Under the pieces are notes generated by a model. That model worked only from the letters and a program-made list of their open reading frames with translations. It searched no databases and had not been told where the DNA came from. DNA of 24,000 bases from Olsenella uli DSM 7084 (lineage in GTDB: Bacteria; Actinomycetota; Coriobacteriia; Coriobacteriales; Atopobiaceae), in the NCBI RefSeq assembly GCF_964283195.1, contig NZ_CAXYLH010000016.1. One strand, written 5' to 3'. This document shows, piece by piece, positions 288 through 20,773 of the stretch; positions within the stretch are counted from its first letter, which is position 1, and every line of letters starts with the position of its first letter. The position numbers were made by a program, and so were the translations under genes.

Positions 288-355
288 GGCAAAAAAGAAA
301 TCCAGTGGCTTGCAGGTTTACCAGGTGAAAAACCTGTCTAACTGAAGCCACTGGA
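288..355 (-). terminator. Rho-independent terminator; probably the original guaA terminator, now ~20 kb from guaA
   Basis: Outer stem TCCAGTGGCTT (301-311) / AAGCCACTGGA (345-355) and inner helix CAGGTTT (313-319) / AAACCTG (330-336). On the minus strand the hairpin is followed by TTTCTTTTTTG (300-288). It lies 45 nt downstream (minus sense) of the guaA-end mimic at 401-415. Confidence 0.7.
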
Positions 356-400
356 CGAAAAATCAGGCTACTAAATGAACCTTACAATAATGTGCGGATG

Positions 401-415
401 TTATTCCCACTCGAA
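401..415 (-). repeat. guaA 3'-end mimic / att-core copy A (attL-like junction)
   Basis: The minus strand reads TTC GAG TGG GAA TAA (F-E-W-E-stop). It shares TCCCACTCG with the true guaA end (20761-20773) and with copy C (16008-16020). Confidence 0.6.
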
Positions 416-768
416 TAAGCGCGTTTGCTACCACGCCATTCCAGTCCATTCCAGTTGTGTCATCGTTTCTAGTTGCCCTGCCGCCGAATCCCGCCACGTG
501 CCGCCGCGTGGGCGTTTGGGACAAAACGTGGGACAAAACCGAAAACTATTTCGAAACCACGAGCCCGCAGTTTCATTTTTGTCCCGGGGACAAAAACGGG
601 TCGGTTTTGAGGCTTGGAGAAGCCCGAAACGGATGCCAAAACGACTGATTTTCCTCTTTGGCACCTGTTTGGTGATGTGAATCGTAGCCAGCGGCTTTAT
701 TGCTTTGCATTTCCGCAGGTCAAGATGGGTAGGCAACATTTATGACTGGAAGAATCGTCGCAGGCGGC
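416..768. repeat. Conserved noncoding island arm, copy A
   Basis: Aligns block by block with 11147-11490. Shared blocks include the tandem CCATTCCAGT pair (about 445-468), GCCGCCGAATCCC, GGGACAAAA at 518-526 and 530-538 (12-bp phase), and the perfect palindrome TTTTTGTCCCGGGGACAAAAA (576-596). Further shared blocks are GATGCCAAAA, CCTCTTTGGCACCTG..GAATCGTAGCCAGCGGCTTT, GCATTTCCGCAGGTCA and GAAGAATCGTCGCAGGC.GCTT. Indels between the copies break every reading frame. Confidence 0.8.
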
Positions 769-1125
769 TTATTCACCCAAGAGTTCAACGGTTCCACTTT
801 CAAATGCATGGGGGAATGCGAATAACCTCGATGCGCTCCCGAACTCGGCGCTAACATAAACGTTGACTACGTCGAGTGAAGACTGGCTAACATGAGTCAC
901 AACACCATCCCCAAGGCTGATATGTCTAAGATGGCTTCCAACTGAAGGCGGGGTTTTGCCAATAGGGACAACATGAAGAGCTGAAGTCCCCCTGGAGTCC
1001 TGCTCGGTGATTCCGCCAGCGCTCTTCTCAAGCCAATCCAGAAGAGCAATCGGATCGTCCATCACGTCAGATGGTGGGGTCGGCATGAAGGGCAGGTTCT
1101 CTTTTTTAGTGTTCGTCTCATGCAA
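769..1125 (-). CDS. Hypothetical protein (118 aa; TTG start uncertain)
   Basis: The ORF abuts the end of arm A exactly. There is no convincing RBS and no family I can recognise. It may be a gene fragment. Confidence 0.3.
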   Translation of the reverse strand: MHETNTKKENLPFMPTPPSDVMDDPIALLDWLEKSAGGITEQDSRGTSALHVVPIGKTPPSVGSHLRHISLGDGVVTHVSQSSLDVVNVYVSAEFGSASRLFAFPHAFESGTVELLGE

Positions 1126-1204
1126 AGCGCCAAAGTCATCCCCGACAATTTACGTAGATGCGACGCGATTTATCCGCCAGGTCCTCAACGCTATGGTTCA
1201 CCGC

Positions 1205-2458
1205 TTACTTGTCGAGGCTGTTGGGGTCCAGGAGGAAATCGAAAAGTCCCATAGTGACGATGCCCGATTCATCTCGGGTGGTGTTGACCACGTCCTTCAC
1301 GATAATGATCTTCTTGAAGCTGTCACCTATGCGCAGGAGCGATGCCGACTCCTGTTCGCGTTTTGCAGCATCCGGGAGAGCGTAGGCGGATTGGATGTAG
1401 TAGCGCTTGCTCCCCAGATTGGCGACAAAATCGACTTCCAAGGTGCTTGTCACGCGTTTTCCATCAGCGTCGGTGAATCTCTTTGTAACCACACCCACAT
1501 CAACGGACAGTCCCCGTGCGCGCAGCTCATTGTAGATTACGTTCTCCATCAGGTGGGTCTCCTCAACCTGTCTGAAGTTCAGCCTTGCATTCCTCAAGCC
1601 AACATCCTCGAAGTAGTACTTCATGGGGGCGCCTATGTATTTCCTACCCTTGATGTCGTATCGCTTAGCCTCGCTTACGAGGAAGGCGTCTTCTAGGCAA
1701 TTGATGTAGGAATGCACGGTGTTTACGCTGATATCCGAATGAAGAACACTCCTGAACGTCGCCTGGATCTTGGGCGCGTTCGTAAGCGATCCGGTTGCCG
1801 AGGCCAGGATGTCGATGAGGTCTTCCAGCTCCTGGGTCTTCCTCAGCCCGTTTCGCTCGACGATGTCCTTGACGTAGGTTTCCTCGAAAAGGTTCGAGAG
1901 GTAGGATGCCTTCCGCTCTTCCGATGCCATAGTGGCTACAAGGGGCAGTCCTCCGTATTCGACGTAATCTGCCCATGCATGAAGGGCATCGTCTTGTCGC
2001 GTTTGCATGAACTCGGCGAACGTTAGCGGGAATATATGCACCTCGTCCCCTCGTCCGCGGAACTCGGTGATGATGTCCTTCGAGAGGAACCTCGAGTTGG
2101 AGCCGGTGACGTACACGTCTACGGCGGGGTTCGCCAGGAGTTCGTTGAGGACCTCGACGAATTCAGGGAGTAGCTGGACCTCATCCAAGAGGACGTAGTG
2201 CATGTCCGAGTCGACAATCCGCTCATTGACGTAATCGAGCATGGCGTCGGGGTCTCTGAGCTTTCTTGCGCTGCGCAGGTCGAGCTGGGCAGCGATGACG
2301 TGGCTGTCTGGGACTCCGGCTTCTCGAAGATGCTCGCGGAACAGGTTGAAGAGAAGGTAGGACTTGCCGCACCTTCTGATGCCGGTGATGACTTTGACGA
2401 GCCCGTTATGCTTGCTCTCGATGAGACTGTTCAGGTACTTGTCGCGCTTGATCTTCAT
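1205..2458 (-). CDS. AAA+ ATPase with DUF4143-type C-terminal region (COG1373-like)
   Basis: 417 aa. Walker A is GIRRCGKSYLL and the Walker B-like motif is YVLLDEVQ. The C-terminal ...YYIQSAYAL...IGDSFKKIIIV... is typical of this family. ATG start with the GGAGAC RBS region. Confidence 0.85.
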   Translation of the reverse strand: MKIKRDKYLNSLIESKHNGLVKVITGIRRCGKSYLLFNLFREHLREAGVPDSHVIAAQLDLRSARKLRDPDAMLDYVNERIVDSDMHYVLLDEVQLLPEFVEVLNELLANPAVDVYVTGSNSRFLSKDIITEFRGRGDEVHIFPLTFAEFMQTRQDDALHAWADYVEYGGLPLVATMASEERKASYLSNLFEETYVKDIVERNGLRKTQELEDLIDILASATGSLTNAPKIQATFRSVLHSDISVNTVHSYINCLEDAFLVSEAKRYDIKGRKYIGAPMKYYFEDVGLRNARLNFRQVEETHLMENVIYNELRARGLSVDVGVVTKRFTDADGKRVTSTLEVDFVANLGSKRYYIQSAYALPDAAKREQESASLLRIGDSFKKIIIVKDVVNTTRDESGIVTMGLFDFLLDPNSLDK

Positions 2459-2515
2459 CGTGTCTCCAGCATCCTATTTACTAAAACATGGCTAGTGCCA
2501 CAAATTATTCAATAG

Positions 2516-3082
2516 GATTATAACAGGCTAGGGCATGGGTGGAGGAAAATCGTCACCGGATACCTGGCGGCCCTTGCCGAAAACGGCTCCCTCTTCGCCG
2601 CCAGCGCGAGGGAGAAGTTGCAGCTTCTGCTTGCCCGCCTGGAGCCCCTCCACGAGCGCTACGACGTAGTCGTCGTCGGCACGCCGTACATGGGGAGCAG
2701 CAACATGAACAAGTGGTTGGTGCCTTGGGTCAAGAAGCACTACAAGAACTCTTGCAGGGATCTGTGCGCTTGCTTCATCAAGAGGGGATTGAACCTAGCT
2801 CGCGACAACGGATATGCGTCTCTGATTACGTCAGACACATGCATGTGCATTTCCTCATTCGAGAAGCTGAGGAAATCAGTGCTCTCGCGATCAACGATCA
2901 TCACCTTCATAGACACTCGCGGAACCAATGCCCATCCCGATGTCTTTGACGCTAATGCCGGATGGGTCTTGCACAACGGCGTTGTCAACGACTACGCAGG
3001 CGCCTACTTCAAGCTGAGCCATCCTATTGTCGAAAAAGAAGCCAGGCTCTTGGAGGGCCCGGCTCACACGCTAGGAGGAGAA
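2516..3082 (+). pseudogene. Internal fragment of a PglX/type IIG-like N6-adenine DNA methyltransferase (BREX-type), truncated at both ends
   Basis: The frame is open from 2516 with no plausible start. The translation ...YDVVVVGTPYMGSSNMNKWLVPWVKKHYKNSCRDLCACFIKRGL...ITSDTCMCISSFEKLRKSVL...ITFID matches the PglX pattern (..VV.NPPYMG..gmn......y.....DLy.cFie..). The catalytic NPPY is changed to GTPY. The 5' part is replaced by the ATPase gene and its promoter. Confidence 0.6.
2517..2525 (-). promoter_or_regulatory. Extended -10 promoter (TGTTATAAT) for the ATPase gene
   Basis: The minus strand reads cTGtTATAATcc about 55 nt upstream of the ATG at 2458. No good -35 is present. Confidence 0.4.
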
Positions 3083-3514
3083 ATGCGGCACAAGTGCAAG
3101 ATCACCGTCTTGAAGACGAAGGTCTTCCCGGACCTGCAGGAGAGGTACCTGGCCAACCCGCAGAGTGGCCCGTGCCCCCGCTTCAAGGCGGGGCAGGTCT
3201 TCGAGTTCGAGCGCACGCCGGTAAACGACAGCTTCTACCACCTGGGCAGGGGCACCCTCGTCGGCGGCGGGGACTTCCCGTGCGGCGGGGCGTGGGACGC
3301 GGTGAGCCGCTACGTCTACACCGCGCTGCAGGGCGGCTCCATCATGAAAAGCTGGACGAACGACGACCGAATGATGATCGCCTGCTGCAACGACGGCACG
3401 AGGCCGGGCGTCTTCAGGATCGAGCGCATCGACGTCCCCGAGACGGACGAGGAGCGGGATTGGCTCTCCAGGCAGGACTTCGCAAACGGCAAGGACGACG
3501 CCTACACGGGCTAG
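3083..3514 (+). CDS. TIGR04076-family protein with a C-terminal extension
   Basis: ATG at 3083 is preceded by tAGGAGGag. MRHKCKITVLK...GPCPRFKAGQVF...AWDAVSRYVYTALQGGSIM...MIACCNDGTRPGVFRIERID matches the remembered TIGR04076 pattern (KITVLK..CP..eGq.F....AW.ai..YV.al..G....CCNDG.RPV.Fk.ER). The ORF track joins it in frame to the upstream methyltransferase relic. Confidence 0.75.
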   Translation: MRHKCKITVLKTKVFPDLQERYLANPQSGPCPRFKAGQVFEFERTPVNDSFYHLGRGTLVGGGDFPCGGAWDAVSRYVYTALQGGSIMKSWTNDDRMMIACCNDGTRPGVFRIERIDVPETDEERDWLSRQDFANGKDDAYTG

Positions 3515-4057
3515 CCCTCAAGATCTGGAGCCGCGTGCCAGGGGCGCCGGGGCGACCCCCCTCGCCAGCCTCGAGATTGCTCCGCTGACAAAAAACCGCG
3601 CATGAATCCGCCAGCCTCCCAAGGCGCTCGGCAGTGAACGGTCGATACGTGCCGTTCAGCACCGCGCTATCATGTCCGCATACAATCAGGCCCTGCCTCA
3701 GGGCGCGCGGACGGAGGACGATGAAGACCGGGCTGGAATCGCGCAAAGACACCACCTGCCCCATGGAGCCAACCATAAGTCCCGCAAAGCCAGACGACAT
3801 CGACGACATCATGGGAATATGACTCGAGGGCAACCTCGATGCGCACCCCTTCGTTCCCAAAGCATATTGGATCGATCGCCATGACGCCGTCAGGGAGGCC
3901 ATATCCCAAGCCGAGGAAACCGCAAGGAGCAGGGGCAATCCCCTGCTCCCTGCGGAATCGTTCACGTTCAATCGCTGGCCACATGCGTCTTGCGTCGCGT
4001 AAAAAGAGGGCGCCACAGCCGTATGGCCGTGGCGCCCTCTAGGGTGTCTGCGCTGCG

Positions 4058-7000
4058 CTATGCGTGGCGCCTGGCGAGCATCAACGCGGCAACAACGATG
4101 ATGCCTCCGGCGATTCCCAAACTCGCGACGGTGGTGAGCGTGTGATCGCCCGTGGCGGGGAGCTTGGATGCGGCGCCTGCCGTGGTGGTGACGGTCGCAG
4201 TGGCACTATTGCCGTCGCCGGGACCCGCAGGATTTGGCGTTGGGTCCGGCTCTACGGCGTCAGCGACGTTGAACGTCCACCACCCAAAAACGCTTTCGTA
4301 GTTGCGCGCGTCGCTGGGCGTGTACTGCGCCAAGAAGCGATAGCCACCCGTTGCCGTGAGCGCGGTTTCGGGGGCAACCCAGGTCCAGGTGCCCTTATCG
4401 TCTGCCGGGAGCTGCTGGTCACCGAGCTTGAGGCCGTTGGTGAGCGTCAGGTCGGGAAGCGTTGTCACCTGGGGCGTGGGGACGGCGCGGTAGATGTCGT
4501 AGAGGGCGACGACGCTGCCGGCGGCGTACTCGTCAGTCTCGGCAACCTCGAAGAGCACGGCGTAGTGACCAGCGTTGACGGGGGCAGCGTCCAGCTTGGT
4601 GAAGCCGTCGTCCTCGACCTCGAAATAGGTGAGGGTGCCGCTTGCGGTCAAGGCGGTGTTCGTGGCGCTGTCGCGAACCTCGGTCGTGACGTTCGCCGGC
4701 ATGCCGTCGTAAACCTTGGACGTTGCGTCGACGGTCAGCGCGAGCTCGGGCTTTCCGGGCGTGGGGTCAGGGCTGGGATCGGTGCCGTCGACAACGTTGA
4801 AGCTGAGCATGCGTGCCGTGCGGAGGTAGTTCCGCGTGTCGGTGGGCGTGTAGATGGCGAGTCCGCTCTCAGTGCCGGCACCCGTGATGGCGCGCGAGCC
4901 ATCGGCCCAGCTCCAGGATCCCTTGGGGTCGTCGGGAATGGCCTCGTCCGCGAAGGTCAGGCCGTCGCGCAACTCGAGGTTGCCGAGCTGGGGCGTATCG
5001 GGGTTGGGCGTCGCCCGGTAGATGCTGAACGATGCCGTGACGGGCTCGGCGGTGTAGTTGGCCGGGGTGTCGGCTGAAAGCTCGGCCAGGTAGGTGCCTG
5101 CGTTGGTAGGAGCCTCCTCGAGCTTGGTGAGCACGCCGTCGACGACCTCGTAGTAGGTGAGCGTGCCGAGGTCATTGAGCTCGTTACCCGTTATGGGGTC
5201 AACGACCGACCAGGCGGCAGCGACGGGCGCGCCGTCATAGGTCTTGGACGCCACGTCGAGCGTGAGCGCAAGCGGCGTCACCTCTACCGTAAGCGTGCCG
5301 GGGATCACGGTGATGCCACTCTGGTAATTGACCTCGCCGGCATCCGTCAGCTGTGCGTTTGCGACGGTGATAGCGTCTGCGTATGTGCCTACGGCGAGGT
5401 CGGCGTAGGACGTCACGGCGTTTCCCGTGTCCTGGGAAAGCTTCTGGAAGTCGAGCGCGGCTGCAATCGGCTGGATAACGCTGTCGGCAGCCTCGCCCTC
5501 GACGAGTCCCTCGACCGTAAAGACGTATCCGGGCTCGGTCCCGTGCCAGGTGCCCGTGGCATCGGCTACGCGCAGCGTGGGTGCCGCATGCTTGGCGATG
5601 GTGAACGTGCACGAGGCCTCGTCGGCGAGGTAGTTGTGCGTATCGGTCACGCGGAGCACGGCCTCATAGCTACCTGCGTTCTTGGGCGCAGCAGTGCGAA
5701 GATCCTCGGTGCGCTCGTCGCCATCGCGCAGGTAGTAGTTGACCTCGTATCTGGCGTTAACCTTCTTGCCGGTGGCATTGGTGATATCCACCGCGGCCTC
5801 AACGGGTTTGCCGTCGTAGGTCTTATCCGCAACCGCGATGGTGCCCGTGACCCTAGCCTGCTCGATGGTCAGCGTGCCCGGCACCACCTTGATGTCGGAG
5901 CTGTAGTTGTTGGCACCCTTCTCGCTCAGCTGCGGGTTTGCAACGGTGATGGCATCTTCGTACTTCCCTGCGTCGAGGGCGCTGTAGTCGAGCCCGGAAC
6001 CGAGCGCGGCGGCCGTGCCCTGCACGAAAACGTCCTCGGCTTTGTCGTTGCCGACAAGACCGCTCACCTCAAACGAGTAGGCGGGCTCGGTCTCGCCATA
6101 GACAACACTCGCGTCTGCGACGGTGATGGTGGGCGCCGCAGCCTTGGTGATAGCGAAGTCGCAGCGGGCCTCGCACGCTTTGTAGTTGGTACGGGCAGGT
6201 ACGTTTATGACAACCACATAGCTGCCGGCATCGACGGGCGCCTCACCGAGCGGTTCGAGCTCGCCGTTGTTGTTGCGGTAATAGCTCAGGCTGTAGGTGC
6301 TGTCGAGCTTCTCGCCGGTGTTCGGGTTAGTGATCGAGCAGGTGACCTCGACGGGCGTCCCGTCATAGGTCTTGCCTGTGGCGGCTACGGCGGCCGCAGG
6401 CGTCGCCGGAGAGACGGTGAGCGTGCCCGCATTGACGAAGACGCTGTTCTTATAGTTGGCGCCTGCGCCCTTGTTGAGCTTCGGGTTCTTGACGGTGATG
6501 GCAGACGGATAGACGCCGACATCAAGATCCTGGTAGCCCTTATTGCCCGTGATGCTCTGGTCGAGCTCGGCCTTGGTGTCCCCGGCGAGGACGTCCTTGC
6601 CCTCGTCGGCGTCGGCCAGGCCGGAGACGGTATAGGTGTAGTCGGGCTCGCTGCCGCTCCAGGTGCCTTCGGCGTCACTTACGGTGATGGTGGGGGGCGG
6701 GGCCTGGTCGATCACGAAGCGCGTAGAGGCCTCGCCACCCAGGTATTTATCGGTGCTCTCGACCGTCCATACCACCTCGTAGCCACCGGCAGGGCTGGGG
6801 TTACCCCACCAAGGGTCGTCCCTATCGTCGTTTTTCTTGATCGCGTAGTACTTGAGCCTGCCTGTGACCTCGACAGGCTCGCCGGTCCCGGCATCGACGG
6901 CAGTTGTCGTGACAAGGGAGTCGCTATAGGGGTTGCCGTCGTAGGTCGTGTCCTCAGCCGTAATGCTCAGCTTGAGCCGCTTGCGTTCGGCGGGCTCATT

Positions 7001-7723
7001 CTTATAGACCTCAAATCTGAGGTAGCGGTACACAGTGGCATAGTTGACCGTGTCCTTGGGCGTGAACATGGCGAGTGCGACGACAACATCGGGGCCGTCT
7101 TTGGAGTCGTCACTGGAGTTGTCACTGGAGCCGTCATCGGGGTCGTGGATCTTCTGGTTTGCGACACGCCTTGTCCATGACCAAGTTCCATCCTCGGGGT
7201 TTGTCGCCTCGGTTTGTTCCGGGAAGGGCTCCTCGGAAGCCCTGAGGCCCTCGCGGAACTTGATGGGCTCAAGCGCGGGCGACTCGGGGTTGGGGATGGC
7301 GCGGTAGATGCGCACGTCCTGCGAGACGCTTCCGCCCAGGTAGTTGTCGGTATCGGGCACGGTGTAGGTCACACGGTACGTGCCGGCGTTCACAGGCGCT
7401 TTCTCGAGCGTCTTCTCGCCGGCATTGGTGACCTCAACGTAGGACAGGCTGCCCTTGACATCCACGGTATCGCCCGTCGCGGGGTCGATCGCTTTGCATA
7501 CGGGCTTAAGCTCTTCGCCGTCGTAGATCTTGTTGCTGACGTTGAGAGAGAGCGTGAGCTGCGTCTGGGCACTAAGGCCACGGCATGCCGCTTCGTCCGC
7601 ACGGGCGTTTGTTGGCGGCGTGGCCACAAAGAGTGCTGCCGAGAGCGCCGCGATGGAGCAGAGCATAAGGGACAGTTTTGCCCATGATCTTCGAGGCCTC
7701 GGGGTGGTAAGCAGGCGTTTCAC
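4058..7723 (-). CDS. Cell-wall-anchored (LPXTG) giant adhesin built of MBG-type repeats
   Basis: 1221 aa. GTG start with an AAAGGAG RBS 7 nt upstream. The signal peptide is ...LSLMLCSIAALSAALFVATPPTNARA. Many modules have the ..K.YDG.P......G.L.Y......AP.NAG.Y motif. Three modules begin AAPT(I/L).V.DA.G.W.G.EP.Y.F.V.GL. The C-terminus is LPATG followed by a hydrophobic helix and RRHA. Confidence 0.92.
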   Translation of the reverse strand: MKRLLTTPRPRRSWAKLSLMLCSIAALSAALFVATPPTNARADEAACRGLSAQTQLTLSLNVSNKIYDGEELKPVCKAIDPATGDTVDVKGSLSYVEVTNAGEKTLEKAPVNAGTYRVTYTVPDTDNYLGGSVSQDVRIYRAIPNPESPALEPIKFREGLRASEEPFPEQTEATNPEDGTWSWTRRVANQKIHDPDDGSSDNSSDDSKDGPDVVVALAMFTPKDTVNYATVYRYLRFEVYKNEPAERKRLKLSITAEDTTYDGNPYSDSLVTTTAVDAGTGEPVEVTGRLKYYAIKKNDDRDDPWWGNPSPAGGYEVVWTVESTDKYLGGEASTRFVIDQAPPPTITVSDAEGTWSGSEPDYTYTVSGLADADEGKDVLAGDTKAELDQSITGNKGYQDLDVGVYPSAITVKNPKLNKGAGANYKNSVFVNAGTLTVSPATPAAAVAATGKTYDGTPVEVTCSITNPNTGEKLDSTYSLSYYRNNNGELEPLGEAPVDAGSYVVVINVPARTNYKACEARCDFAITKAAAPTITVADASVVYGETEPAYSFEVSGLVGNDKAEDVFVQGTAAALGSGLDYSALDAGKYEDAITVANPQLSEKGANNYSSDIKVVPGTLTIEQARVTGTIAVADKTYDGKPVEAAVDITNATGKKVNARYEVNYYLRDGDERTEDLRTAAPKNAGSYEAVLRVTDTHNYLADEASCTFTIAKHAAPTLRVADATGTWHGTEPGYVFTVEGLVEGEAADSVIQPIAAALDFQKLSQDTGNAVTSYADLAVGTYADAITVANAQLTDAGEVNYQSGITVIPGTLTVEVTPLALTLDVASKTYDGAPVAAAWSVVDPITGNELNDLGTLTYYEVVDGVLTKLEEAPTNAGTYLAELSADTPANYTAEPVTASFSIYRATPNPDTPQLGNLELRDGLTFADEAIPDDPKGSWSWADGSRAITGAGTESGLAIYTPTDTRNYLRTARMLSFNVVDGTDPSPDPTPGKPELALTVDATSKVYDGMPANVTTEVRDSATNTALTASGTLTYFEVEDDGFTKLDAAPVNAGHYAVLFEVAETDEYAAGSVVALYDIYRAVPTPQVTTLPDLTLTNGLKLGDQQLPADDKGTWTWVAPETALTATGGYRFLAQYTPSDARNYESVFGWWTFNVADAVEPDPTPNPAGPGDGNSATATVTTTAGAASKLPATGDHTLTTVASLGIAGGIIVVAALMLARRHA

Positions 7724-7860
7724 GGAGCAGCTCCTTTATCACAAATTGCCCTGGCGTCATTTGAGCGGTCCGCCGGGACAGCGCCTGATGATACTGGCGC
7801 TTTTTTGCACGTCATCCATCATCAAGTACATTACCATATATTGGTTAATTATCGTTGTTT

Positions 7861-7909
7861 TTGCGTCCGTGAGAAGATAGGTTCGTCCCGTCTTATGTCG
7901 TTTCGTCCC
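7861..7909 (-). promoter_or_regulatory. Three direct repeats with 20-bp phasing upstream of the adhesin gene (candidate LytTR operator)
   Basis: The plus strand reads TTGCGTCCG (7861-7869), GTTCGTCCC (7881-7889) and TTTCGTCCC (7901-7909). In minus sense, the proximal repeat is followed after ~20 nt by TATATGgTAATGT, which is -10-like. Confidence 0.45.
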
Positions 7910-7954
7910 AAATAGTAAGAAGAATGAATTCTCTCTATCAGCGTGGGCCAATGG

Positions 7955-13490: not shown

Positions 13491-13885
13491 ACGACTATAT
13501 CCGTAACGGGGCAGCCTATACGGCAAAGGTACAGCAGAACACTCATCAGGGCTATATCTTTGATGGCTGGTACACGGATGAACGGTGTACGCTTCCGTAT
13601 AAGGACGGTACGGTTCTGAACACGGATACCATTCTGTATGGCAAGTGGACCAAGGATAGCGAAACTCCTAACCAGCCGAGCAAGCCGGAAGCCCCTGTCA
13701 CACCGAACCAACCGAGCACACCGGATGTGCCGAGCAGCCCCAGTGCGCAGGATCAGTTACCCCAGACAGGTGATCCGATGAATTCGACGCTGTTGATTTC
13801 CCTGATGGGACTGTCTTTGGCAGGATTGCTTGGCTCGCTGGTCGTTGCAAAAAAGAACAACCATCACGGCAAACAGATGAAATAG
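13487..13885 (+). CDS. C-terminal fragment of the same protein: Listeria-Bacteroides-type repeat plus LPQTG sorting signal
   Basis: The GYIFDGWYTDERCTLPYKDGTVLNTDTILYGKWT repeat is followed by a Pro/Ser linker, LPQTG, a hydrophobic helix and KKNNHHGKQMK. One extra C in the C7 run would fuse it in frame to 11730-13490. Confidence 0.75.
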   Translation: MNDYIRNGAAYTAKVQQNTHQGYIFDGWYTDERCTLPYKDGTVLNTDTILYGKWTKDSETPNQPSKPEAPVTPNQPSTPDVPSSPSAQDQLPQTGDPMNSTLLISLMGLSLAGLLGSLVVAKKNNHHGKQMK

Positions 13886-13924: not shown

Positions 13925-13951
13925 GGTTAGACGACTACAAACATGAAAAGA

Positions 13952-14030
13952 ACTCAGAGCCTTTAGTTTTTTGTCCCACGGCACACAGCGGGCAGCCTTT
14001 AGAGGCTCGATATCGACGAAAACGCCCGTT
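13952..14030. repeat. Relic of the distal part of a C-type island arm
   Basis: ACTCAGAG..TTTTTTGTCCCA..GCCTTTAGAGGCTCGATATCGACGAAAACGCCCGTT aligns with 16164-16248 (ACTCAGAG..TTTTTGTCCCA..GCCTTTGGAGGCTCGATATCGCCGAAAAACGCCCGTT). Confidence 0.6.
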
Positions 14031-14119
14031 CATAACCTCTCACAAAAGATCGAGCTTCTCAATCCACGTCATCCCTCTCAGGGCCACGCGCAATCAACGT
14101 CTGTGCAGTCCGCTCGTGC

Positions 14120-14252
14120 TACAATGCGGGCACCAGAGATGAAAACACAGTCCCCGTCGGGTAGTCGTGGGCGTGCGGGAGTCCGCATCAGTAACCTGCC
14201 TCCTTGGTTGTCCCTTCTCTGCATGGTCATCTACATAAAGAAGGAATCAGCC
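14120..14252 (+). promoter_or_regulatory. yjdF leader: TGcTACAAT promoter plus a ~125-nt structured 5'UTR (candidate yjdF-type riboswitch)
   Basis: The extended -10 is TGCTACAAT (14117-14125). The closing helix is ATGCGGGC (14124-14131) / GTCCGCAT (14181-14188). The pyrimidine tracts CCTGCCTCCTT and TCCCTTCTCT can pair with the SD AAGAAGGA. A second copy of the whole leader lies at 16811-16943. Confidence 0.45.
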
Positions 14253-14672
14253 ATGCAGATCAGCGTGTCATCCACCCTGACCGTATTTCATGACGGCCAA
14301 TTTTGGGTCGGGCTGGCGGAACATGTCGAGGATGGAAGGTACGGCGTCACCCGCATCATCTTCGGCGCAGAACCGTCCAATGGGGAAATCCTACAATTCG
14401 TTGCAAGTAAATGGGCGAAGCTCGTGTTCTCCGGCGACGAGCCCGCCGAGGCGAGCGAGCCCGCGAGGAATCCCAAGCGCCGCGCCCGCGAGGCATCGAA
14501 GGCCCAAAAGCCACCGGCGATGGGCACCAAGGCGCAGCAGGCGCTCGCGAGTCAGCGAGAGACAATGAAACGAGAGTCGGTCCGCGCAAGAAGCCAGCGC
14601 CACGCGGACGAGGCGGTAGCGCGCTTCGAGCGGCGGAAGCTGAAGCGCAAGCAGAAGCATCGCGGGCATTGA
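14253..14672 (+). CDS. yjdF: YjdF / DUF2992 family protein
   Basis: 139 aa from the ATG at 14253 (RBS GAAGGA). MQISVSSTLTVFHDGQFWVGLAEHVEDGRYGVTRIIFGAEPSNGEILQFV... is followed by a basic tail ...NPKRRAREASKA...GTKAQQAL...KLKRKQKHRGH. This is the canonical YjdF pattern. Confidence 0.85.
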   Translation: MQISVSSTLTVFHDGQFWVGLAEHVEDGRYGVTRIIFGAEPSNGEILQFVASKWAKLVFSGDEPAEASEPARNPKRRAREASKAQKPPAMGTKAQQALASQRETMKRESVRARSQRHADEAVARFERRKLKRKQKHRGH

Positions 14673-14766
14673 TCGCCATTTTACGGCCCTCCAGCCGCTC
14701 CGCTTGCGATTGACATGGCGGCAGGGAACGAGTTCGCGTCCGCGCATCGCTTGCGAGGGCCGTTCC

Positions 14767-15441
14767 CTAAATGGCCTTGCGCCTCGCCTGCTTGAGCCAA
14801 TTCCTCTTAAAGGGGCCGATCCCGCCGAAGAACTTGTTGTAGGTCTCCCCGTCTTCCTTCGCGGCGTATTTGATGGCCGCCAGCTCGATCGTGCATAGAT
14901 AGTCCGCGGCCTGTTCGAGCCGATAATCGGTCATCGATGTCTTACGGCGCTCCAAGACGCCCTTGGAGAGGGCGAACCCGAAGGACTGGTCGAGGGCCTT
15001 CTTGACGATATCCTGGCCGTTGCCGTAATAGACCTTCACATCGTCGAACGCCTGAAAGAAGTCAAGATGGTCGAACAGGAGCCCGGAGATGTCCCGCTTC
15101 ATGCGGGCGGTGAGCTTCGCGAGGTCATCGAACTCGCTTCTTCGGTATGCGAACGTAGCGTACTTGATGGGGAGCCTCTGCACGAGGACGTTGAACGAGT
15201 AGAGCATCTTCTTCCGCTGCTCAAGGGACATCCCTCGGTAAGGTCCATGACCGTTCAGCAGCGGCTCGGAATGAAACGGTATGTTCGGTAAGTCGGACCT
15301 GAGGAGGGAGTCCTCGTAGCGCGCGATTTTGCCAGATATGGAATCGGCCTGGTCATGAATCACGAGCGTGAGCAAATAGTAGCGCGCTTTCCCGCCGCGA
15401 TCCCCGCTCTCGTCGACGAATATGCTCAGGTCTCGCCCCAA
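14767..15441 (-). CDS. DUF3800 domain protein
   Basis: The family-typical N-terminus LSIFVDESGDRGG is present. I prefer the TTG start at 15441 (AGGGG 7 nt upstream). The track start at 15528 (GTG) would run through a terminator hairpin. Confidence 0.8.
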   Translation of the reverse strand: MGRDLSIFVDESGDRGGKARYYLLTLVIHDQADSISGKIARYEDSLLRSDLPNIPFHSEPLLNGHGPYRGMSLEQRKKMLYSFNVLVQRLPIKYATFAYRRSEFDDLAKLTARMKRDISGLLFDHLDFFQAFDDVKVYYGNGQDIVKKALDQSFGFALSKGVLERRKTSMTDYRLEQAADYLCTIELAAIKYAAKEDGETYNKFFGGIGPFKRNWLKQARRKAI

Positions 15442-15457
15442 TAAAATACCCCTAGAT

Positions 15458-15547
15458 AGAATAAAAGCCGGGGGATAAGCCCCCGGCACTTGGAGGTAGC
15501 CGAACGGCCACCAAGATCTATATACCACGCCTGTGATGGTTTTTCAA
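15458..15547 (-). promoter_or_regulatory. Sigma70-type promoter plus a short leader with an intrinsic terminator directly upstream of the DUF3800 gene
   Basis: In minus sense the promoter is TTGACA-like TTGAAA (15547-15542), a 17-nt spacer, then TATATA (15524-15519). Leader hairpin 1 is CTTGGTGGCC..GGCTACCTCCAAG. It is followed by GCCGGGGG (15487-15480) cttat CCCCCGGC (15474-15467) and TTTTATTCT, which ends ~17 nt before the TTG start. Confidence 0.55.
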
Positions 15548-15841
15548 GAACCGCTCGAACGATTGCGCGAGCTAACCCCCCGATTACTCTCTTTTCCCTG
15601 AGATGGCGAGATTCTTTACTCCCCATTAACCACCTGGGAAAACGCCGTACGGAGACCGCCGAAAAGCCCATTGAGTTCGATTTGAGTTTCACGGGCCTCG
15701 AAGCGGCCCCGTCTCGCCCTCGGGGACAAAAACAGCGCGTCCACTCACTCGGGATAAATCCTTACTCCCATTCCCCCGAGTACCACCCCGTGCCTTGCCG
15801 TCTTGAAATGCGGGGAGTAAATGGCGAAATCGCAGGTGAAA

Positions 15842-16020
15842 GGGAGTAAAACGGCAAAGAAAAAGCCTCCGTCCCAACGCGGGGGCGGAGGCTCGGTTGC
15901 CGCATTTACTCACCGATGCCGCTGGTGGCTTTGCCGTGAGTCGCATACGAAACGAAACTCAGCGGTACGCCACGGCACTCAAAAGCGCAGGTCGAAGCCC
16001 TGTCGGCCTATTCCCACTCG
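15842..16020. repeat. Island P-segment copy C plus guaA-end core copy C
   Basis: Aligns with 10958-11146 and 20594-20773. In minus sense the core reads ACC GAG TGG GAA TAG (T-E-W-E-stop) at 16020-16006. Confidence 0.8.
15855..15892 (-). terminator. Rho-independent terminator inside P-segment C
   Basis: GCCTCCGTCCC (15865-15875) / GGGGCGGAGGC (15882-15892, one G-U pair). On the minus strand it is followed by TTTTTCTTTG. Confidence 0.7.
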
Positions 16021-16300
16021 GTGGTTATAGTTTTGCCGTCTCGTCACTCCAGTTGCACCCAGTTTTCGGCGGCATCTCGAAGTGAGTGCCGCTGAATGAC
16101 GCGACGTCGCGTTTCATCGGCTTCGGGGACAAAAGCTGGGACAACTTCAAAAACCATTTTCAAACTCAGAGTATTGAGTTTTTATTTTTGTCCCAAGGGG
16201 CACGGAGAGCCGCCTTTGGAGGCTCGATATCGCCGAAAAACGCCCGTTTTGAAACTCAACCGCCTTTGAGCCTGCAAACCACCAGCTTCAACAGTAAGTG
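16021..16300. repeat. Island arm, divergent copy C
   Basis: It has the same architecture as arms A and B: tandem CACTCCAGTTG/CACCCAGTTT, GGGACAAAA (16126-16134) and GGGACAAC (16138-16145) at 12-bp phase, a hairpin AAACTCA/TGAGTTT, and the half-palindrome TTTTTGTCCC (16185-16194). Confidence 0.65.
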
Positions 16301-16532
16301 AGTCGACGCGGGTGGCTTACGAGCCGTTCACAAAACCGCAGGCCACAGGTCTTTGTCAACGATAAGCAAAGTGAATAGTCTCAGGTGGCTTGCCCATGAG
16401 TTGGCGTAAGCCTGTTTAGCAAAAGGCTAATCGGACACGACAGGCCGCCCGCATGGCGACGGCGTTTCCCGTGCGGGCACAAACAGCCCTGCGTGCCCTG
16501 TCGCGCGATATCCCAATGCGACGTTCAGAACC

Positions 16533-16802
16533 CTACCCGCCAAGCAGCCACCTCGCGAAATTCAGCACGAGCACGCCCTCCCGGGTATGGGGCTCATGCC
16601 TCGTGCGAGTGATGAGAATCTTCGGGAATGCATCCCCGATGGATAGAATCGGCGCAATCTCCCTCTCGAGCGTCGAATCGGCGCCGATATCGTCGCTCAC
16701 ATACACTTTCCTTCCCGGTTTCGAAACTTGGAAGGCAGTATGCGCAAGGATGCGTCGAGGTGCGATCCCAGTCGTACCATGCCAGCAGAGATGTCGAGGC
16801 AC
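16533..16802 (-). pseudogene. 3' fragment of a second AAA+/DUF4143 ATPase gene
   Basis: ...SKPGRKVYVSDDIGADSTLEREIAPILSIGDAFPKILITRTRHEPHTREGVLVLNFARWLL aligns with the C-terminus of the 1205-2458 product (...LGSKRYYIQSAYALPDAAKREQESASLLRIGDSFKKIIIVKD...GIVTMGLFDFLL). The whole ATPase core is missing. Confidence 0.6.
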
Positions 16803-16810
16803 ATTCGTTC

Positions 16811-16957
16811 ATGCTGCAATGCGGGCATCGGAGATGAAAAACAGCCCGTCGGGTAGTCATGGGCGTGCGGGAGCCCGCATCAGTAACCTGCCTCCTCGGT
16901 TGTCCCTTCTTTGCATGGTCGTCTACATAAAGGAGGAACCAGCCATGCAGATCAGCA
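16811..16957 (+). promoter_or_regulatory. Second copy of the yjdF leader plus only the first four yjdF codons (truncated)
   Basis: Near-identical to 14117-14264. TGCTGCAAT is the -10, and the closing helix is ATGCGGGC (16818-16825) / GCCCGCAT. The SD is AAGGAGGA, followed by ATG CAG ATC AGC at 16944. Homology is lost after about 16956. Confidence 0.6.
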
Positions 16958-16974
16958 TGCTTGCCCTTCTTGGG

Positions 16975-17285
16975 TCACGGACCGGGGAGGCGAGGGCCTC
17001 CGTCGGGACCGCCCCGAGCAACCGGCATATCCAAGGAATGACAAGGCTCGATCGCTGTGCTGGTCAGGATGCCGAAGCGGGCCGTCCGCCAATCGGAATG
17101 CGGGTCAGGATGCTGCAACGTGATTCCAGCTGCAGGATACGGCTCCTTTGCGGTTGCCGCAAAACCTGCTGGCAACATTCTTACTATCCGAATGATGTAC
17201 GCATCCCTTGGGATCGTTTCGCCTGACCAGGGCCATCTTCAGCGCCTCATCGGCCAGCTCGGCAGGCGCCTCTTCCACGCGTAAT
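16975..17285 (-). pseudogene. Degraded IS3-family transposase (DDE/rve domain) fragment
   Basis: The minus-strand translation PAELADEALKMALVRRNDPKGCVHHSDS fits the IS3 pattern (..Lv..AL.mAl.rR.p..gliHHSDrGsqY). The downstream frame shifts to ...AAGITLQH...DWRTARFGILTSTAIE, a weak match to GI..SmSr.GncwDNA..Esff..lK.E. It has no start and contains frameshifts. Confidence 0.35.
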
Positions 17286-17368
17286 AGCCCTGGCGGGTCA
17301 CCTATGCAACCAAAGATACAAAAGGAATCGAATGGCCAGAGAGGATTGCCCTTACCGATGCTCGATTC

Positions 17369-17398
17369 TTGACAGGCAAACTCAAGCCTCGTTAATAT
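17369..17398 (+). promoter_or_regulatory. Sigma70-type promoter of the mef/msr operon
   Basis: TTGACA (17369-17374), 17-18 nt spacer, TTAATA/TAATAT (17392-17398). Confidence 0.5.
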
Positions 17399-17438
17399 TA
17401 CATGGTTTGCCAGACCGAATTAACAAAGGAGGGGTGTC

Positions 17439-17509
17439 GTGGTTGGTCTTTTCCGCACGTGGATGAGCGCCTAGAAAGCGGCGCTGTTGTGGCGTCGCGC
17501 TGTTTTTCT
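17439..17509 (+). promoter_or_regulatory. Candidate leader peptide ORF (MVGLFRTWMSA) plus a terminator-like hairpin: putative macrolide-responsive attenuator
   Basis: AAAGGAGG lies 6 nt before the GTG at 17439, and the 11-codon ORF ends with TAG at 17472-17474. Then an imperfect GC-rich hairpin (17477-17501; for example GCGGCGC / GCGTCGC with one G-U pair) is followed by GTTTTTCT (17502-17509), ~30 nt before the mef start. Confidence 0.4.
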
Positions 17510-17537
17510 GCACGCCATTTCACGATTGGACATAACC

Positions 17538-18824
17538 ATGATATTTGAAACCTCTCGGGGCAGGTCTGTTCTGCTGTGCCATTCATGGCAATTCAAGCTT
17601 TGTTTCGTATGGGGCGGGGAGCTCGTTTCGACATTGACGAGTTCGATTCTCCAAATGGGTCTTATTTGGCATCTCGCCCTCACGACAGGGTCGTCTTCTC
17701 TCCTCTCCTTAGCATCGCTGGCAGGCTTTCTGCCGATTGCTTTGTTCGGAATCCTTGCGGGCGCCGTTGTCGACAGACTGCCTTTGAAACGTGTCCTCAT
17801 CGGCGCCGACCTCTTCATTGCCGCGGTGGGTGCCGCCTTGGCGATTGCCTCGTTGGCCGGCAGCTTACCTGCATGGCTAATTCTCATCGCCCTGTTTCTC
17901 CGTGCAGTTGGTACTTCGTTCTACACGCCAGCCTCCCAATCTCTCACGCCCCATCTCGCCCCGCCAGAGCATCTCGTTCGCCTATCGGGGGTGACTCAGG
18001 CGATTCAGTCCGGCGGATACATTCTTGGCGCCGCGCTTGCAGCAGTGATTTATCCCGTGGCGGGCATTACCGCTATGATTGTCCTCGACGTGCTGGGAGC
18101 GCTTTTCGCTTCTTTAGCCGTCCTCGCCGCACAGATAGACGCAGGGGGCCTCGATGAAGCCGACCGCAGCTTGTCCTTTTCCAATAAGGTTCGAGAGCTC
18201 TTCTCTGAGATTTCGGACGGCTACAAGCTGATTAGGGAGTACAGGGGGCTGTTCGCCCTTCTTTGGTGCGGGTTCGTCTTCGCTTTCGCGTTCTCTCCGC
18301 TCGCGGCATTGTTCCCAATAATGACCTTGGGGCATTTTGGCGGTAGCACGGGGGATGCCGCTTTGGTGGAAATCCTTTTTTCTGCAGGCATGCTGGCTGG
18401 GTCCGGCATTTTGGCGGCCACGGGAGGGTTCCGCAATAGGTCGTTCACCATGGTCGCCGCGATTGCCGGCTTCGGCATTGCCGCAATCGTATCCGGATCG
18501 CTCGGCCCGTCATTGTTCGCTGCTTTCCTGCCGGTGAGCTTTCTTATGGGCGCATGCTCCCCGTTGTACGCGGGAACCCAGACTGCCCTTATGCAGGAGC
18601 AGATACCTCCTGAGTACCTAGGCCGCGTTTTCGGCCTCTACGGAACCATCATGGCGTGGGCCATGCCCATGGGCCTCGCAGCCCCCTCCGTTTTTGCGGA
18701 TCTGCTTGGAGCTCCGTTATGGTTCGTCGGCTCTGGAGCGACCATGGTACTGCTTGCGATGGCTATGCTGCTTGCTCCGAGCGTCCGAAACGCGGGGAAA
18801 AGAGATACCGGGCAGATTCAATAG
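17538..18824 (+). CDS. mef: Mef-family MFS macrolide efflux transporter
   Basis: Collinear with Mef(A) as I remember it: W..K..FVWGGELVSTLTSSILQMGLIWHLALTTGSSSLLSLASLAGFLPIALFG..AGAVVDRLPLKRVLIGADL...EYLGRVFGLYGTIMAWAMPMGL. Start codon uncertain (ATG 17538, weak RBS). Confidence 0.85.
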   Translation: MIFETSRGRSVLLCHSWQFKLCFVWGGELVSTLTSSILQMGLIWHLALTTGSSSLLSLASLAGFLPIALFGILAGAVVDRLPLKRVLIGADLFIAAVGAALAIASLAGSLPAWLILIALFLRAVGTSFYTPASQSLTPHLAPPEHLVRLSGVTQAIQSGGYILGAALAAVIYPVAGITAMIVLDVLGALFASLAVLAAQIDAGGLDEADRSLSFSNKVRELFSEISDGYKLIREYRGLFALLWCGFVFAFAFSPLAALFPIMTLGHFGGSTGDAALVEILFSAGMLAGSGILAATGGFRNRSFTMVAAIAGFGIAAIVSGSLGPSLFAAFLPVSFLMGACSPLYAGTQTALMQEQIPPEYLGRVFGLYGTIMAWAMPMGLAAPSVFADLLGAPLWFVGSGATMVLLAMAMLLAPSVRNAGKRDTGQIQ

Positions 18825-19085
18825 CCCAAGTATTCGAAAAAAAGAGGCAGCAGCCATCGGTTCAAGCGTCAGCCTTCAAGCCCTTGCGACGACGAGGTAT
18901 TGCACCGACATTCCGCATCGCGCTCCTTATTCGTCGCCAACTATCATTTTCGGATTTGCCGGCTTGCGCAAGGTCAAAACGCTCGCGCCGGCAATTGGGC
19001 AAAGGCGAAAAATCGACGTGAGCAATCTTTTTTGGCATGGCTGCGCTTCCAGTAAAACGCTAATACACAAAAGGCGGTTCAACCT

Positions 19086-20555
19086 ATGGAACTCATAGTC
19101 AAAGCTAAAGACATCTTTTTGGAATATGCCGGCCGCGATATCCTAGATATCGAAGAGTTGGAAATCTACTCCTACGATCGCATCGGCTTGGTGGGAGACA
19201 ATGGCGCAGGCAAAACCAGCCTGCTTAAAATTCTGAGCGGCAATCTTACCATTGCGGACGCCGACGTCAGGCGCTTCGGCAGCATTGCCCTCATCGGCCA
19301 ACTCGATGAACTCGACCTTGATGCGGCTCAGGACAGTGGTGAGATGCTCTCCCGTCTCAACGTCGCCGGAGTGGCGCAGGAGACGATGAGCGGCGGGGAG
19401 GAAACACGCGCCAAGATTGCCTCTGCACTCTCCCAGCATGCAAGCGCGATCTTCGCCGACGAGCCTACGAGCCACCTCGACCAAGACGGCATCCGCCTTC
19501 TCGTCGGACAACTCAAGGCATTTGATGGGGCTCTGCTCATCGTGAGCCATGACCGTCATTTTCTCGACCAGGTGGTAGACAAGATCTGGGAGCTCAAAGA
19601 CGGCGGTATTTCCGAATTCTGGGGTGACTACTCCGACTATCTGCGACAGAAAGAAGAAGAGCGCAAAGCTCAGGCGACTCGATACGAAGAGGCGATGCGC
19701 GAGCGCGATCGCCTCGAAGCCGCCATCGAAAAACAACGGAAAAAAGCACGGCAGGTCGACGCCAAGCGGAAGGCTGCGAAAAAAAGCAACGAGTATGCAG
19801 GTCGATTGGGGCATCAGAAAGCAACCGGCACCAAACAGAAGAGGATGTACCAGGCGGCTAAGGACATGGAGAAGCGCCTCGAAGCGCTCGAAGGGATTGA
19901 GGCCCCAGATAGCATTCGCGCCGTGCGGTTCCGCCAGAGCAAGGCCCTGGAACTGCATAGTAAATTTCCCATCTCGGCAGACGATTTCAGCTTGAGCTTC
20001 GGCAACTGCATGCTCTATGACCACGCGAAATTCGAGATACCGCTCGGTGCCAAAGTGGCCATCACCGGTGGCAACGGTACAGGAAAGACCAGCCTGCTGA
20101 AGGCAATCGCTCGACGCGCCGACGGTATCAACATCTCTCCCAAGGCAGAGATCGGTTACTTCGAGCAAACAGGCTACAAGTTCGACGCCCGTCAGTCTGC
20201 GATCTCGTTCATGCAGGATGGTTGCGAGTACAGCATGACCGAAATTCGAGGCATCCTCGCCTCTATGGGAATCGGACCGCGCGACCTGACAAAGGACGTT
20301 GGCGTTCTCTCGGGAGGCGAAGTCATCAAGCTGCTACTCGCGAAGATGCTGCTGGGCAGATACAACATCTTGCTCATGGACGAGCCTGGAAATTACCTGG
20401 ACATCAAGAGCGCCGAAGCCCTCGAGCAGATGATGAGCGCCTATGCCGGAACGATAGTGTTCGTCTCCCACGATAAGAGGCTGGTCGAGAACGTCGCAGA
20501 CATTGTCTACGAAATAAAGGACACCAAGCTAGTCAAAATCTTTCAGCGCGAATAG
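19086..20555 (+). CDS. msrD: ABC-F ribosomal protection protein of the Msr(D)/Mel type
   Basis: 489 aa with two ABC cassettes ([20 protein letters not shown] twice) and a basic interdomain linker. It is collinear end to end with Msr(D): MELI.KAKDI......[23 protein letters not shown]...[25 protein letters not shown]...YNIL.MDEP.N.LD...[10 protein letters not shown]. Confidence 0.9.
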
Positions 20556-20593
20556 CCCTAAATGAGCAAGAAATAATCCCCGAACGGAGACAA

Positions 20594-20773
20594 GGGAGTA
20601 AAACGGCAAAGAAAGAGCCTCCGTCCCAACGCAGGGAACGGAGGCTCTTTAATCGCTTTTACTCATCTCCGTCGCTGGTGGCTTTGTCATGACTCTCGTA
20701 CGAAACGAAACTCAGCGGCACAGTGCGGCACTCAAAATCGCAGGTCAGAACCCTATCGGCCTACTCCCACTCG
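20594..20773. repeat. Island P-segment copy D plus the true guaA end (attR-like junction); it now forms the guaA 3'UTR
   Basis: Aligns with 10958-11146 and 15842-16020. It starts at GGGAGTAAAAC (20594-20604) and ends in CTACTCCCACTCG (20761-20773), which is the stop plus E-W-E codons of guaA. Confidence 0.8.
20607..20645 (-). terminator. Rho-independent terminator currently serving guaA
   Basis: GCCTCCGTCCC (20617-20627) / GGGAACGGAGGC (20634-20645, one bulged A). On the minus strand it is followed by TCTTTCTTTG. Confidence 0.7.

Follow-up and report, generated by a model that had tools for sequence, protein, structure and literature searches.

How can units of DNA that encode no recombinase come to lie stacked, one behind another, at a single chromosomal site? 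The question is raised by a 24,000-nt stretch of the Olsenella uli DSM 7084 assembly GCF_964283195.1 (contig NZ_CAXYLH010000016.1), referred to below as the window, in which the end of the GMP synthase gene guaA recurs downstream of the gene in company with related non-coding segments. At the 3′ end of guaA the window shows an array built by tandem accretion, with at least four stacked mobile units, three of which are seen complete. As argued below from comparison with other genomes, these units are likely to be of the cis-mobilizable element (CIME) type, accreted at the guaA end and moved by an integrase from another element.

Anatomy of the array

The last codons and the stop codon of guaA (core D, 20761–20773; CTACTCCCACTCG, reading CGAGTGGGAGTAG on the guaA strand) form a 13-bp core, CGAGTGGGARTAR, of which four copies, one of them degenerate, occur in the window (cores A to D, Table 1). 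Three of the four cores have a 167-nt segment before them, termed P, and three have an arm of ~360 nt after them. A repeat search recovered a 179-nt repeat in three copies (10957–11135, 15841–16019 and 20594–20772; 92% and 70% identity to the reference copy, spacing 4884 and 4753) and a pair of arm repeats 10.72 kb apart (405–773 versus 11128–11494, 73–90% identical). Alignments gave the order P-core-arm at each junction and identified arm C (16021 to ~16420) as a diverged relative of arms A and B. The repeat array is real and far beyond chance, and the recurrence of the core and the P-core-arm order, put forward in the original prediction from the letters of the window, were borne out by the repeat search, the alignments and the exact core coordinates. 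Core B, which had been described there as scrambled, is not so and differs by three substitutions from AGAGTGGGAGTAG, the core at homologous junctions of the arm-B type in L002 and L069 (loci used for comparison are numbered with the prefix L). The earlier count of three units holds for the complete units and is otherwise a simplification: the window starts at the exact end of a 37-kb contig, and two other assemblies break at most 48 bp from there, so that the array is truncated on the left, and unit 2 contains an internal remnant resembling arm C.

The shared segments are rich in repeated motifs. The terminator hairpins of the P segments fold at −38 to −42 kcal/mol and a hairpin in the left flank (~294–357) at −30 kcal/mol (z = −5 to −9). 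The motif GAGTAAA occurs eight times versus 1.42 expected, always in P or in the leader that adjoins one P copy (see below), and forms an inverted pair around each terminator, including that of the P copy next to guaA (P_D). Arms A, B and C together account for ten of the 12 copies of the motif GGGACAAA (0.74 expected), and the other two are in the leader and in the arm remnant of unit 2. Four of the copies are in arm A (two direct copies and one inverted pair), which also holds two GAATCGTNGCNGGCGGCTT-like repeats, and arm C is 100% identical in more than 20 other loci. From this placement we infer that GGGACAAA and GAGTAAA are candidate binding sites for an integrase or its partners, such as an excisionase. 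At the Rfam gathering threshold no RNA family was found in P or the arms, two yjdF riboswitches being the sole matches in the window, and no tRNA or tmRNA gene was found in the window.

The sequence beyond core A had been taken for the ancestral end of guaA. Its relatives, located by one 20-nt stretch of the flank, were found in 11 metagenome contigs at 80–99.7% identity over positions 75–400, lying after guaA or after the arms of other units, and the guaA gene beside the 99.7% copy is 82.7% identical. As the flank is near-identical beside a divergent guaA and also follows the arms of other units, it is the end of a further mobile unit and not the ancestral end of guaA. No integrase was found after the flank sequence in its metagenome contigs, where the genes include defence-type ATPases and DUF3800. 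Assignment of the flank to the post-core class of an element with a 374-aa integrase (L007) was tried and rejected, as only ~20 nt are shared, and the metagenome matches were preferred.

Absence of recombinase genes from the window

No integrase, resolvase, excisionase, relaxase or transposase domain was found in the window by Pfam and NCBIfam scans of the larger open reading frames (ORFs) and of selected small ORFs in gene-poor stretches. The integrases, excisionase (Xis), helix-turn-helix (HTH), NikA-like and relaxase proteins of the relatives described below gave no tblastn match in the six frames of the window; the integrases used were those of 356 and 374 aa, termed Int356 and Int374. Phage structural, replication and packaging-hijack domains were likewise not found in the window by Pfam. 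The three units, which have no gene in common, are therefore without a recombinase gene, as had been read from the ORFs alone. An accompanying caveat, that a recombinase gene of the family might reside outside such arrays, keeps some of its force: the contig stops ~400 bp past core A, and an integrase-bearing unit could lie further left.

Integrase-bearing relatives of the units

Ten contigs encode an identical GuaA protein, and their guaA genes with the upstream region are 98.6–99.5% identical. A few shared modules aside, what follows guaA is unrelated from contig to contig, the differing content always beginning at the core, and a distal flank in common was not found within 10 kb; strains with identical GuaA thus differ completely after guaA, in support of the original prediction. 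The order guaA-core-P-HTH (137 aa)-Xis (67 aa)-tyrosine integrase (356 aa)-NikA/MobA-like was found in L004, L005, L008 and L010. The Xis matches the model of the ICEBs1 Xis (E = 7e-13), and Int356 has the domains Arm-DNA-bind_4, SAM_3 and Phage_integrase. L008 also carries ParA, ParB and a PF03432 relaxase, followed by the ATP-binding cassette F (ABC-F) gene of unit 3, and in L004 the integrase unit is separated from guaA by a tet(W)-type unit that has no integrase. Integrase-less units also adjoin integrase-bearing ones in L014 and L018. A different integrative and mobilizable element (IME), with Int374, occupies L007, and other types of post-core segment lie right after guaA in L001–L003, L006 and L009, the last with a P copy further out, at a second core. 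guaA is thus a hotspot for several element families.

A wider scan was made with a 20-nt invariant stretch of P, in one genome per species, and matched at least 120 loci; the counts that follow are among the 120 matches listed. The taxa were Collinsella, Atopobium and Atopobiaceae, Eggerthellaceae, Slackia, Senegalimassilia, Enorma, Adlercreutzia, Actinomyces and Bifidobacterium asteroides. With the exception of L030, P follows the core wherever the upstream sequence suffices. guaA itself immediately precedes 72 copies; 38 have an arm or some different non-guaA sequence before them and are nearly all internal to arrays. P is thus not a dispersed repeat unlinked to guaA, an outcome that would have spoken against repeated integration. 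P is followed at a fixed offset by the integrase module (HTH, Xis, Int356, NikA-like) in 32 loci, and probably in 8 more, which supplies the relative with an integrase beside P that had been looked for. From this fixed offset, P is the guaA-side end of an IME family. The cargo of unit 3 follows P in 39 loci, and in 26 it is followed by different cargo, the stored sequence containing no integrase of the Int356 family, so that integrase-less P loci outnumber integrase-bearing ones by 65 to 40. Within the window, P_C with its 265-nt leader (Table 1) is 86–87% identical to L004, L005, L008 and L010 at 11590–12035; unit 2 thereby retains a piece of the integrase module, lying in the relatives before the repressor gene. 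Two more contigs, retrieved through an integrase homologue, contain a large BREX/CBASS/GmrSD island that runs off the locus.

Spread of unit 3

Unit 3 (16008–20775; 4.77 kb, without an integrase of its own) carries genes for a Mef-like major facilitator superfamily (MFS) transporter and an Msr-like ABC-F ribosomal protection protein. The ABC-F protein scores 490.6 bits against NCBIfam ribo_prot_ABC_F (cut-off 380) and 672 bits against the Msr family, below its cut-off of 680; the MFS protein scores 330 bits against Mef(A), below the cut-off of 675. Aligned core to core, unit 3 shows 95–100% nucleotide identity in 25 loci, in hosts that include Collinsella, Atopobium, Enorma, Eggerthellaceae and Actinomyces, whereas the adjoining guaA genes are merely 65–86% identical. 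The junction between P and cargo is identical in every copy, and the neighbours on both sides vary between genomes. High identity beside divergent guaA genes, different neighbours and a fixed junction indicate that the integrase-less form itself has moved many times, and its insertion with core-exact ends in guaA of many species needs a recombinase from outside the element. The exact ABC-F protein is present in ~19,850 indexed blocks of the public assembly collection, and its gene also occurs, at 96% identity, in the integrase- and relaxase-bearing IME of L008. Unit 3 is intact, recently acquired and nearly unchanged across many genera.

The yjdF riboswitch of unit 3 lies ~560 nt upstream of the Mef-like/Msr-like operon, and the putative resistance operon may therefore have come under riboswitch control. 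In L016, L017 and L019, the same Mef-like/Msr-like module lies away from guaA, with transposases of the IS256 or IS3 type at its flanks; in L017 it is the whole of unit 3, and L017 and L019 also keep the adjoining P-core-arm junction. These copies flanked by insertion sequences are a second route of spread. In L021 (Collinsella provencensis LT904908.1, 11675–21470), a siphovirus-like prophage adjoins the core beside unit 3, and phages may therefore use the same guaA core.

Origin and movement of the units

In the explanation that we favour, an IME family targeting guaA would integrate by tyrosine-recombinase crossover within the 13-bp core. Each incoming element would supply its own copy of the core, a stop codon and, in its P arm, a terminator for guaA, and would push the earlier occupant outward, giving guaA-core-(P-cargo-arm)-core-(P-cargo-arm)-core. 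The three complete units, which keep both attachment (att) ends and have no integrase, excisionase or mobilization genes, would be CIME-type derivatives of such IMEs, and their movement would depend on an integrase, and probably also an excisionase, from another element. A foreign integrase could recombine the attL and attR of the unit itself in trans, or the unit could be excised in cis together with a neighbouring integrase-bearing IME and be transferred by means of the IME relaxase and a helper conjugation system. We infer that enzymes of the Int356 family act on the sites of the window, by one or the other of these routes. Both the anatomy and the strain comparison support repeated site-specific integration into one att core, as first proposed, and dependence on an integrase from another element, of the CIME/IME type, is the best explanation of the units.

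Units 1 and 2 are older and decaying, and could suggest another history, in which each unit arrived as a complete IME, lost its integrase in place and is now an immobile fossil. The core that they share carries three substitutions, unit 2 is fused and has an arm remnant without an inner core or P, unit 1 contains pseudogenes, including a methylase fragment, and the surface-protein gene of unit 2 is split; both units were found in the lineage of this strain only (L011–L013), and unit 2 keeps the leader piece described above. Such decay in place is nevertheless unlikely to account for the array, given that all copies of unit 3 share one P/cargo deletion junction and that this integrase-less form, almost invariant beside divergent guaA genes and varied neighbours, moved repeatedly. 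Use of one core by many unrelated unit types with different arms could also be explained by a single host enzyme, such as the Xer-type recombinases used by integrative mobile elements exploiting Xer (IMEXs). This is very improbable, as the core is the coding end of guaA and not a dif site, these arrays contain at least three types of element-borne integrase, and in 32 to 40 of the matches listed P stands at a fixed offset from one of these.

An unrecognised recombinase, encoded by the units or RNA-guided, was the other mechanism allowed for in the original prediction, and it might be sought in ~1.4 kb of unit 3 (16021–17486) without a recognised gene or among several ORFs without a family match. 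We consider its existence scarcely credible, and it is not needed: no ORF is common to the three units, their shared parts are non-coding att arms, and in relatives these arms adjoin a classical tyrosine integrase and an excisionase; the gene-free stretch is partly accounted for by the arm, a riboswitch remnant and a truncated DUF2992. There is next to no chance that the array is an artefact of mis-joining or repeat collapse in a metagenome-derived assembly, even though the 37-kb contig ends within the array and the ends of three assemblies fall at one point to within 48 bp. L011 and L012, which are independent assemblies, are identical in the layout of unit 1 and in its junction with unit 2, unit 1 is also present in L013, and both the unit 3-guaA junction and the core-P-arm junctions are found again in dozens of independent assemblies, isolate genomes included; moreover, the repeat copies differ by 8–30% and would not collapse.

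Several points weigh against accretion of CIME-type units moved by another element's integrase, the explanation that we prefer. The evidence on movement is comparative throughout. No empty guaA site, of the kind expected by the original prediction in related genomes, was found among the ten contigs with identical GuaA, the core of every one of them being followed by some unit. No Int356 element ending in arm A, B or C was recovered, and the next core beyond an Int356 element was reached in none of 22 species-representative loci; the sole distal arm seen on Int356 elements (L004 and L014) is an unrelated AT-rich arm. Other integrases target the same core, of 374 aa in L007, of 361 aa in L018 and a 30%-identical one in L082. 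The sample given by the P scan is neither complete nor random. With the contig end 400 bp beyond core A, an integrase of the family elsewhere in this genome would be out of view, and no origin of transfer was assigned to the integrase-less units, there being no known sequence to search with.

A broader reading, which we regard as possible and rather doubtful, is that the guaA end serves as a cassette-like platform in Coriobacteriia and some Actinomycetes, where a minority of integrase-bearing IMEs would routinely move a larger pool of integrase-less units in trans. Under this reading, integrase-less units bounded by P and an arm may carry resistance, defence and surface-protein genes, and unit 3 may be a globally spread, non-autonomous macrolide-resistance ‘cassette’. 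If true, IME att sites would make up a platform that parallels integrons in function, which goes beyond the occasional cis-mobilization shown for CIMEs.

Comparison with known elements

CIMEs are defined, and their accretion in three steps (integration, decay and further integration) is described, in section 2.3 of a review (PMC5704250), and CIMEs and tandem accretion related to ICESt1 and ICESt3 are known from Streptococcus thermophilus (Pavlovic 2004 and Bellanger 2011, as cited in PMC5357655 and PMC5704250). Streptococcal IMEs occur in accretion with decayed elements, and some tyrosine integrases target guaA (PMC5357655). An actinobacterial IME in the 3′ end of guaA, ATE-1 of Trueperella pyogenes, is listed in a table of the review (PMC5704250). 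The units of the window resemble CIMEs in having att ends but no integration and transfer genes, in their tandem order at a conserved gene's 3′ end, in the direct repeats of the target end, and in belonging to arrays that mix decayed elements, functional ones and ones with unrelated integrases. Direct repeats of the core bound the units, cleanly for unit 3 and with a degenerate core between units 1 and 2; P is common to them and the Int356-bearing IMEs; and genes for integration, excision, conjugation and mobilization were not found by Pfam, NCBIfam and tblastn. The 265-nt leader in unit 2 and the cargo of unit 3 inside the L008 IME fit either deletion or fusion as their origin. The differences are that the hosts are Coriobacteriia and Actinomycetes instead of Firmicutes, that the target is guaA instead of fda, rpsI, rpmG or rplL, and that here integrase-less P loci are the more numerous (among the matches listed), one unit having crossed genera nearly unchanged. 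In the features open to computation, descent by deletion excepted, the units agree with CIMEs; the structure is of a known kind and the family is new. No description of this element family in Collinsella, Olsenella or other actinobacteria was found in the literature searched.

ATE-1, as described in that table, shares with the relatives of the window a tyrosine integrase, the 3′ end of guaA and the resistance gene tet(W), and related arrays likewise carry tet(W)-type genes and Mob_Pre (MobV-type) relaxases (L004, L020 and L023). By the same description, not by sequence, ATE-1 differs in having its own integrase and a MobV relaxase, neither of which is present in the window units. Streptococcal IMEs of the Tyr_3 family and elements of the Tn5801 type have the same guaA-end target and differ in belonging to Firmicutes and encoding their own integrase, a comparison of target and gene content, not of sequence. 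Tn5801 presumably duplicates GAGTGGGAATA, which is contained in core A.

The MEGA (macrolide efflux genetic assembly) and related mef/msr(D) elements of streptococci are small, consist in essence of two genes, for a Mef-type MFS protein and, after it, an Msr-type ABC-F protein, and have no recombinase of their own. Unit 3 differs in that its proteins score below the NCBIfam Mef(A) and Msr cut-offs, the resistance being putative, and in having defined att ends and a single target, the guaA core. Integron cassettes resemble the window units as small, recombinase-less cargo units arrayed at one site, with the tyrosine recombinase encoded elsewhere. The array differs in bordering guaA and not an IntI/attI platform, its junctions are P-core-arm att sites of ~500 bp that carry arm-type motifs and not folded attC sites, and the units have their own promoters and terminators and several genes; Int356 scored 27 bits against integron integrase models (cut-off 265). 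Canonical IMEs encode integrase or excision genes and a relaxase, which were not found in the window and are encoded by its relatives in other strains. IMEXs use dif, whereas the target here is the coding end of guaA and element-borne integrases accompany the family; domains typical of prophages or phage satellites were not found in the window.

The results place a hotspot of stacked mobile islands at guaA in common gut and oral Actinomycetota (Olsenella, Collinsella and Atopobium), the islands being linked to a very abundant tyrosine-integrase IME family. Unit 3 crossed family and class boundaries with core-exact ends, and the wide spread of this one integrase-less resistance-type unit is noteworthy, as is the integrase-less majority among the P matches listed. 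Should the Mef-like/Msr-like pair give macrolide resistance, unit 3 would be a widespread vehicle missed by tools based on integrases and relaxases. The array also lends itself, as a natural system, to testing whether non-autonomous integrative elements are mobilized in trans or in cis.

Features of the window and further observations

Table 1. Position of guaA, cores, arms and cargo in the 24,000-nt window, from the guaA end to the contig end
Feature	Position	Strand	Evidence or remarks
guaA (GMP synthase, 533 aa), target gene	20761–22362	-	Pfam GATase, GMP_synt_C, NAD_synthase
P_D, 167-nt guaA-side end (attL arm) of unit 3	20594–20760	-	Repeat family D1, alignments; fold −42.3 kcal/mol
Unit 3 cargo: Mef-like MFS transporter (17487–18824), Msr-like ABC-F ribosomal protection protein (19086–20555)	17487–20555	+	NCBIfam, Pfam
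yjdF/azaaromatic riboswitch, unit 3	16824–16923		48.4 bits; then truncated DUF2992 start, 16845–16959
Arm C, distal (attR-side) arm of unit 3	16021–16420		GGGACAA motifs, partial inverted repeat
Core C, unit 3/unit 2 junction	16008–16020	-	CTATTCCCACTCG; guaA strand CGAGTGGGAATAG
P_C (15841–16007) and 265-nt leader	15577–16007	-	Leader precedes HTH gene in integrase-bearing relatives
Unit 2, inner half	13951–15528		Repeats D5, D8, D11; Rfam, Pfam, blast
Unit 2, DUF3800 gene	14767–15528	-	
Unit 2, intact DUF2992 gene after riboswitch	~14253–14672	+	
Unit 2, yjdF/azaaromatic riboswitch	14129–14231		Rfam RF01764, 59.9 bits
Unit 2, arm-C-like remnant	13951–14030		
Unit 2, outer half: arm B (11137–11494) and split LPXTG gene	11137–13885	+	Repeats D2, D3, D9; alignment
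Unit 2, LPXTG gene as two ORFs	11730–13490 and 13487–13885	+	Pfam Gram_pos_anchor, Flg_new
Core B, degenerate, unit 2/unit 1 junction	11124–11136	-	CCACTCCTACTCC; guaA strand GGAGTAGGAGTGG
P_B, guaA-side end of unit 1, with terminator	10957–11123	-	Repeat D1; terminator-like site 11010–10979
Unit 1 cargo span	769–10899		Pfam; gene calls in L011
Unit 1, two SUKH/SMI1-KNR4 proteins	9783–10199 and 10417–10899		Pfam
Unit 1, LytTR regulator	7955–9022	-	Pfam
Unit 1, MBG-repeat LPXTG surface protein	4058–7723	-	Pfam
Unit 1, Eco57I-type methylase fragment	2618–3514		Pfam
Unit 1, AAA_14/DUF4143 ATPase	1205–2458	-	Pfam
Unit 1, 118-aa ORF	within 769–10899		
Arm A, distal arm of unit 1	414–773		~80% identity to arm B (repeats, alignment)
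Core A, unit 1/fourth unit junction	401–413	-	TTATTCCCACTCG; guaA strand CGAGTGGGAATAA
guaA-side end of fourth, different mobile unit	75–400	-	Own terminator ~294–357; contig end at position 1

The exact GuaA protein bears the name of an Olsenella uli / Atopobiaceae GMP synthase in public sources, and the ATPase of unit 1 is likewise assigned there to Olsenella uli / Atopobiaceae. In unit 1, the LPXTG protein (1221 aa) contains MBG domains and is encoded with internal DNA repeats of ~550–580 nt (families D4, D6 and D10). The GC-rich stretch 2500–4050 has no clean gene and holds the C-terminal part of the Eco57I-type methylase in a 298-aa ORF; it is probably the remains of a restriction or BREX-type system. 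Derivation of this fragment from the BREX methylase of an Int356 element was rejected, as no similarity was found. The split LPXTG gene of unit 2 consists of ORFs of 586 aa and 132 aa that overlap at 13487–13490, the LPXTG anchor and a Listeria-Bacteroides repeat being in the second, and is probably a frameshifted pseudogene. The arm remnant, riboswitch and DUF2992 gene of unit 2 mirror the start of unit 3 with no core or P before them, so that two former units have fused.

A leader separates P from the repressor gene in integrase-bearing elements, and it contains a pseudo-core, GAATGGGAGTAA, at 15762–15773 in the window (~11835–11846 in L008), with an arm-C-like end before it. Its position after such an end suggests a still older nesting, and P itself may be a relic of an older, almost fully deleted unit. 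In flank A, positions 241–262 carry TGACCTGCGATTTTG and a GAGCAAAAGCGAT motif, which match the core-proximal part of P (20730–20751) in opposite orientation relative to the core; they make up an inverted repeat, an imperfect one, at which the same protein may bind in both places.

A protein of 430–450 aa with only HTH_23, HTH_28 and HTH_38 domains is always encoded beside the AT-rich arm, in L004 (14723–16382) and L014 (11689–13340), and may be an accessory DNA-binding or recombination protein; the arm itself has GATAGC repeats and a 30-nt palindrome. An Int356 IME in L155/L156 (7620–17185) carries GmrSD, a CBASS-type SMODS protein, BrxL and a PglX-like methylase, and other units at the guaA site carry ApeA/HEPN, Abi_2, DUF4238 and OLD-like ATPases. 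With such cargo in its units, the guaA hotspot also acts as a defence island.

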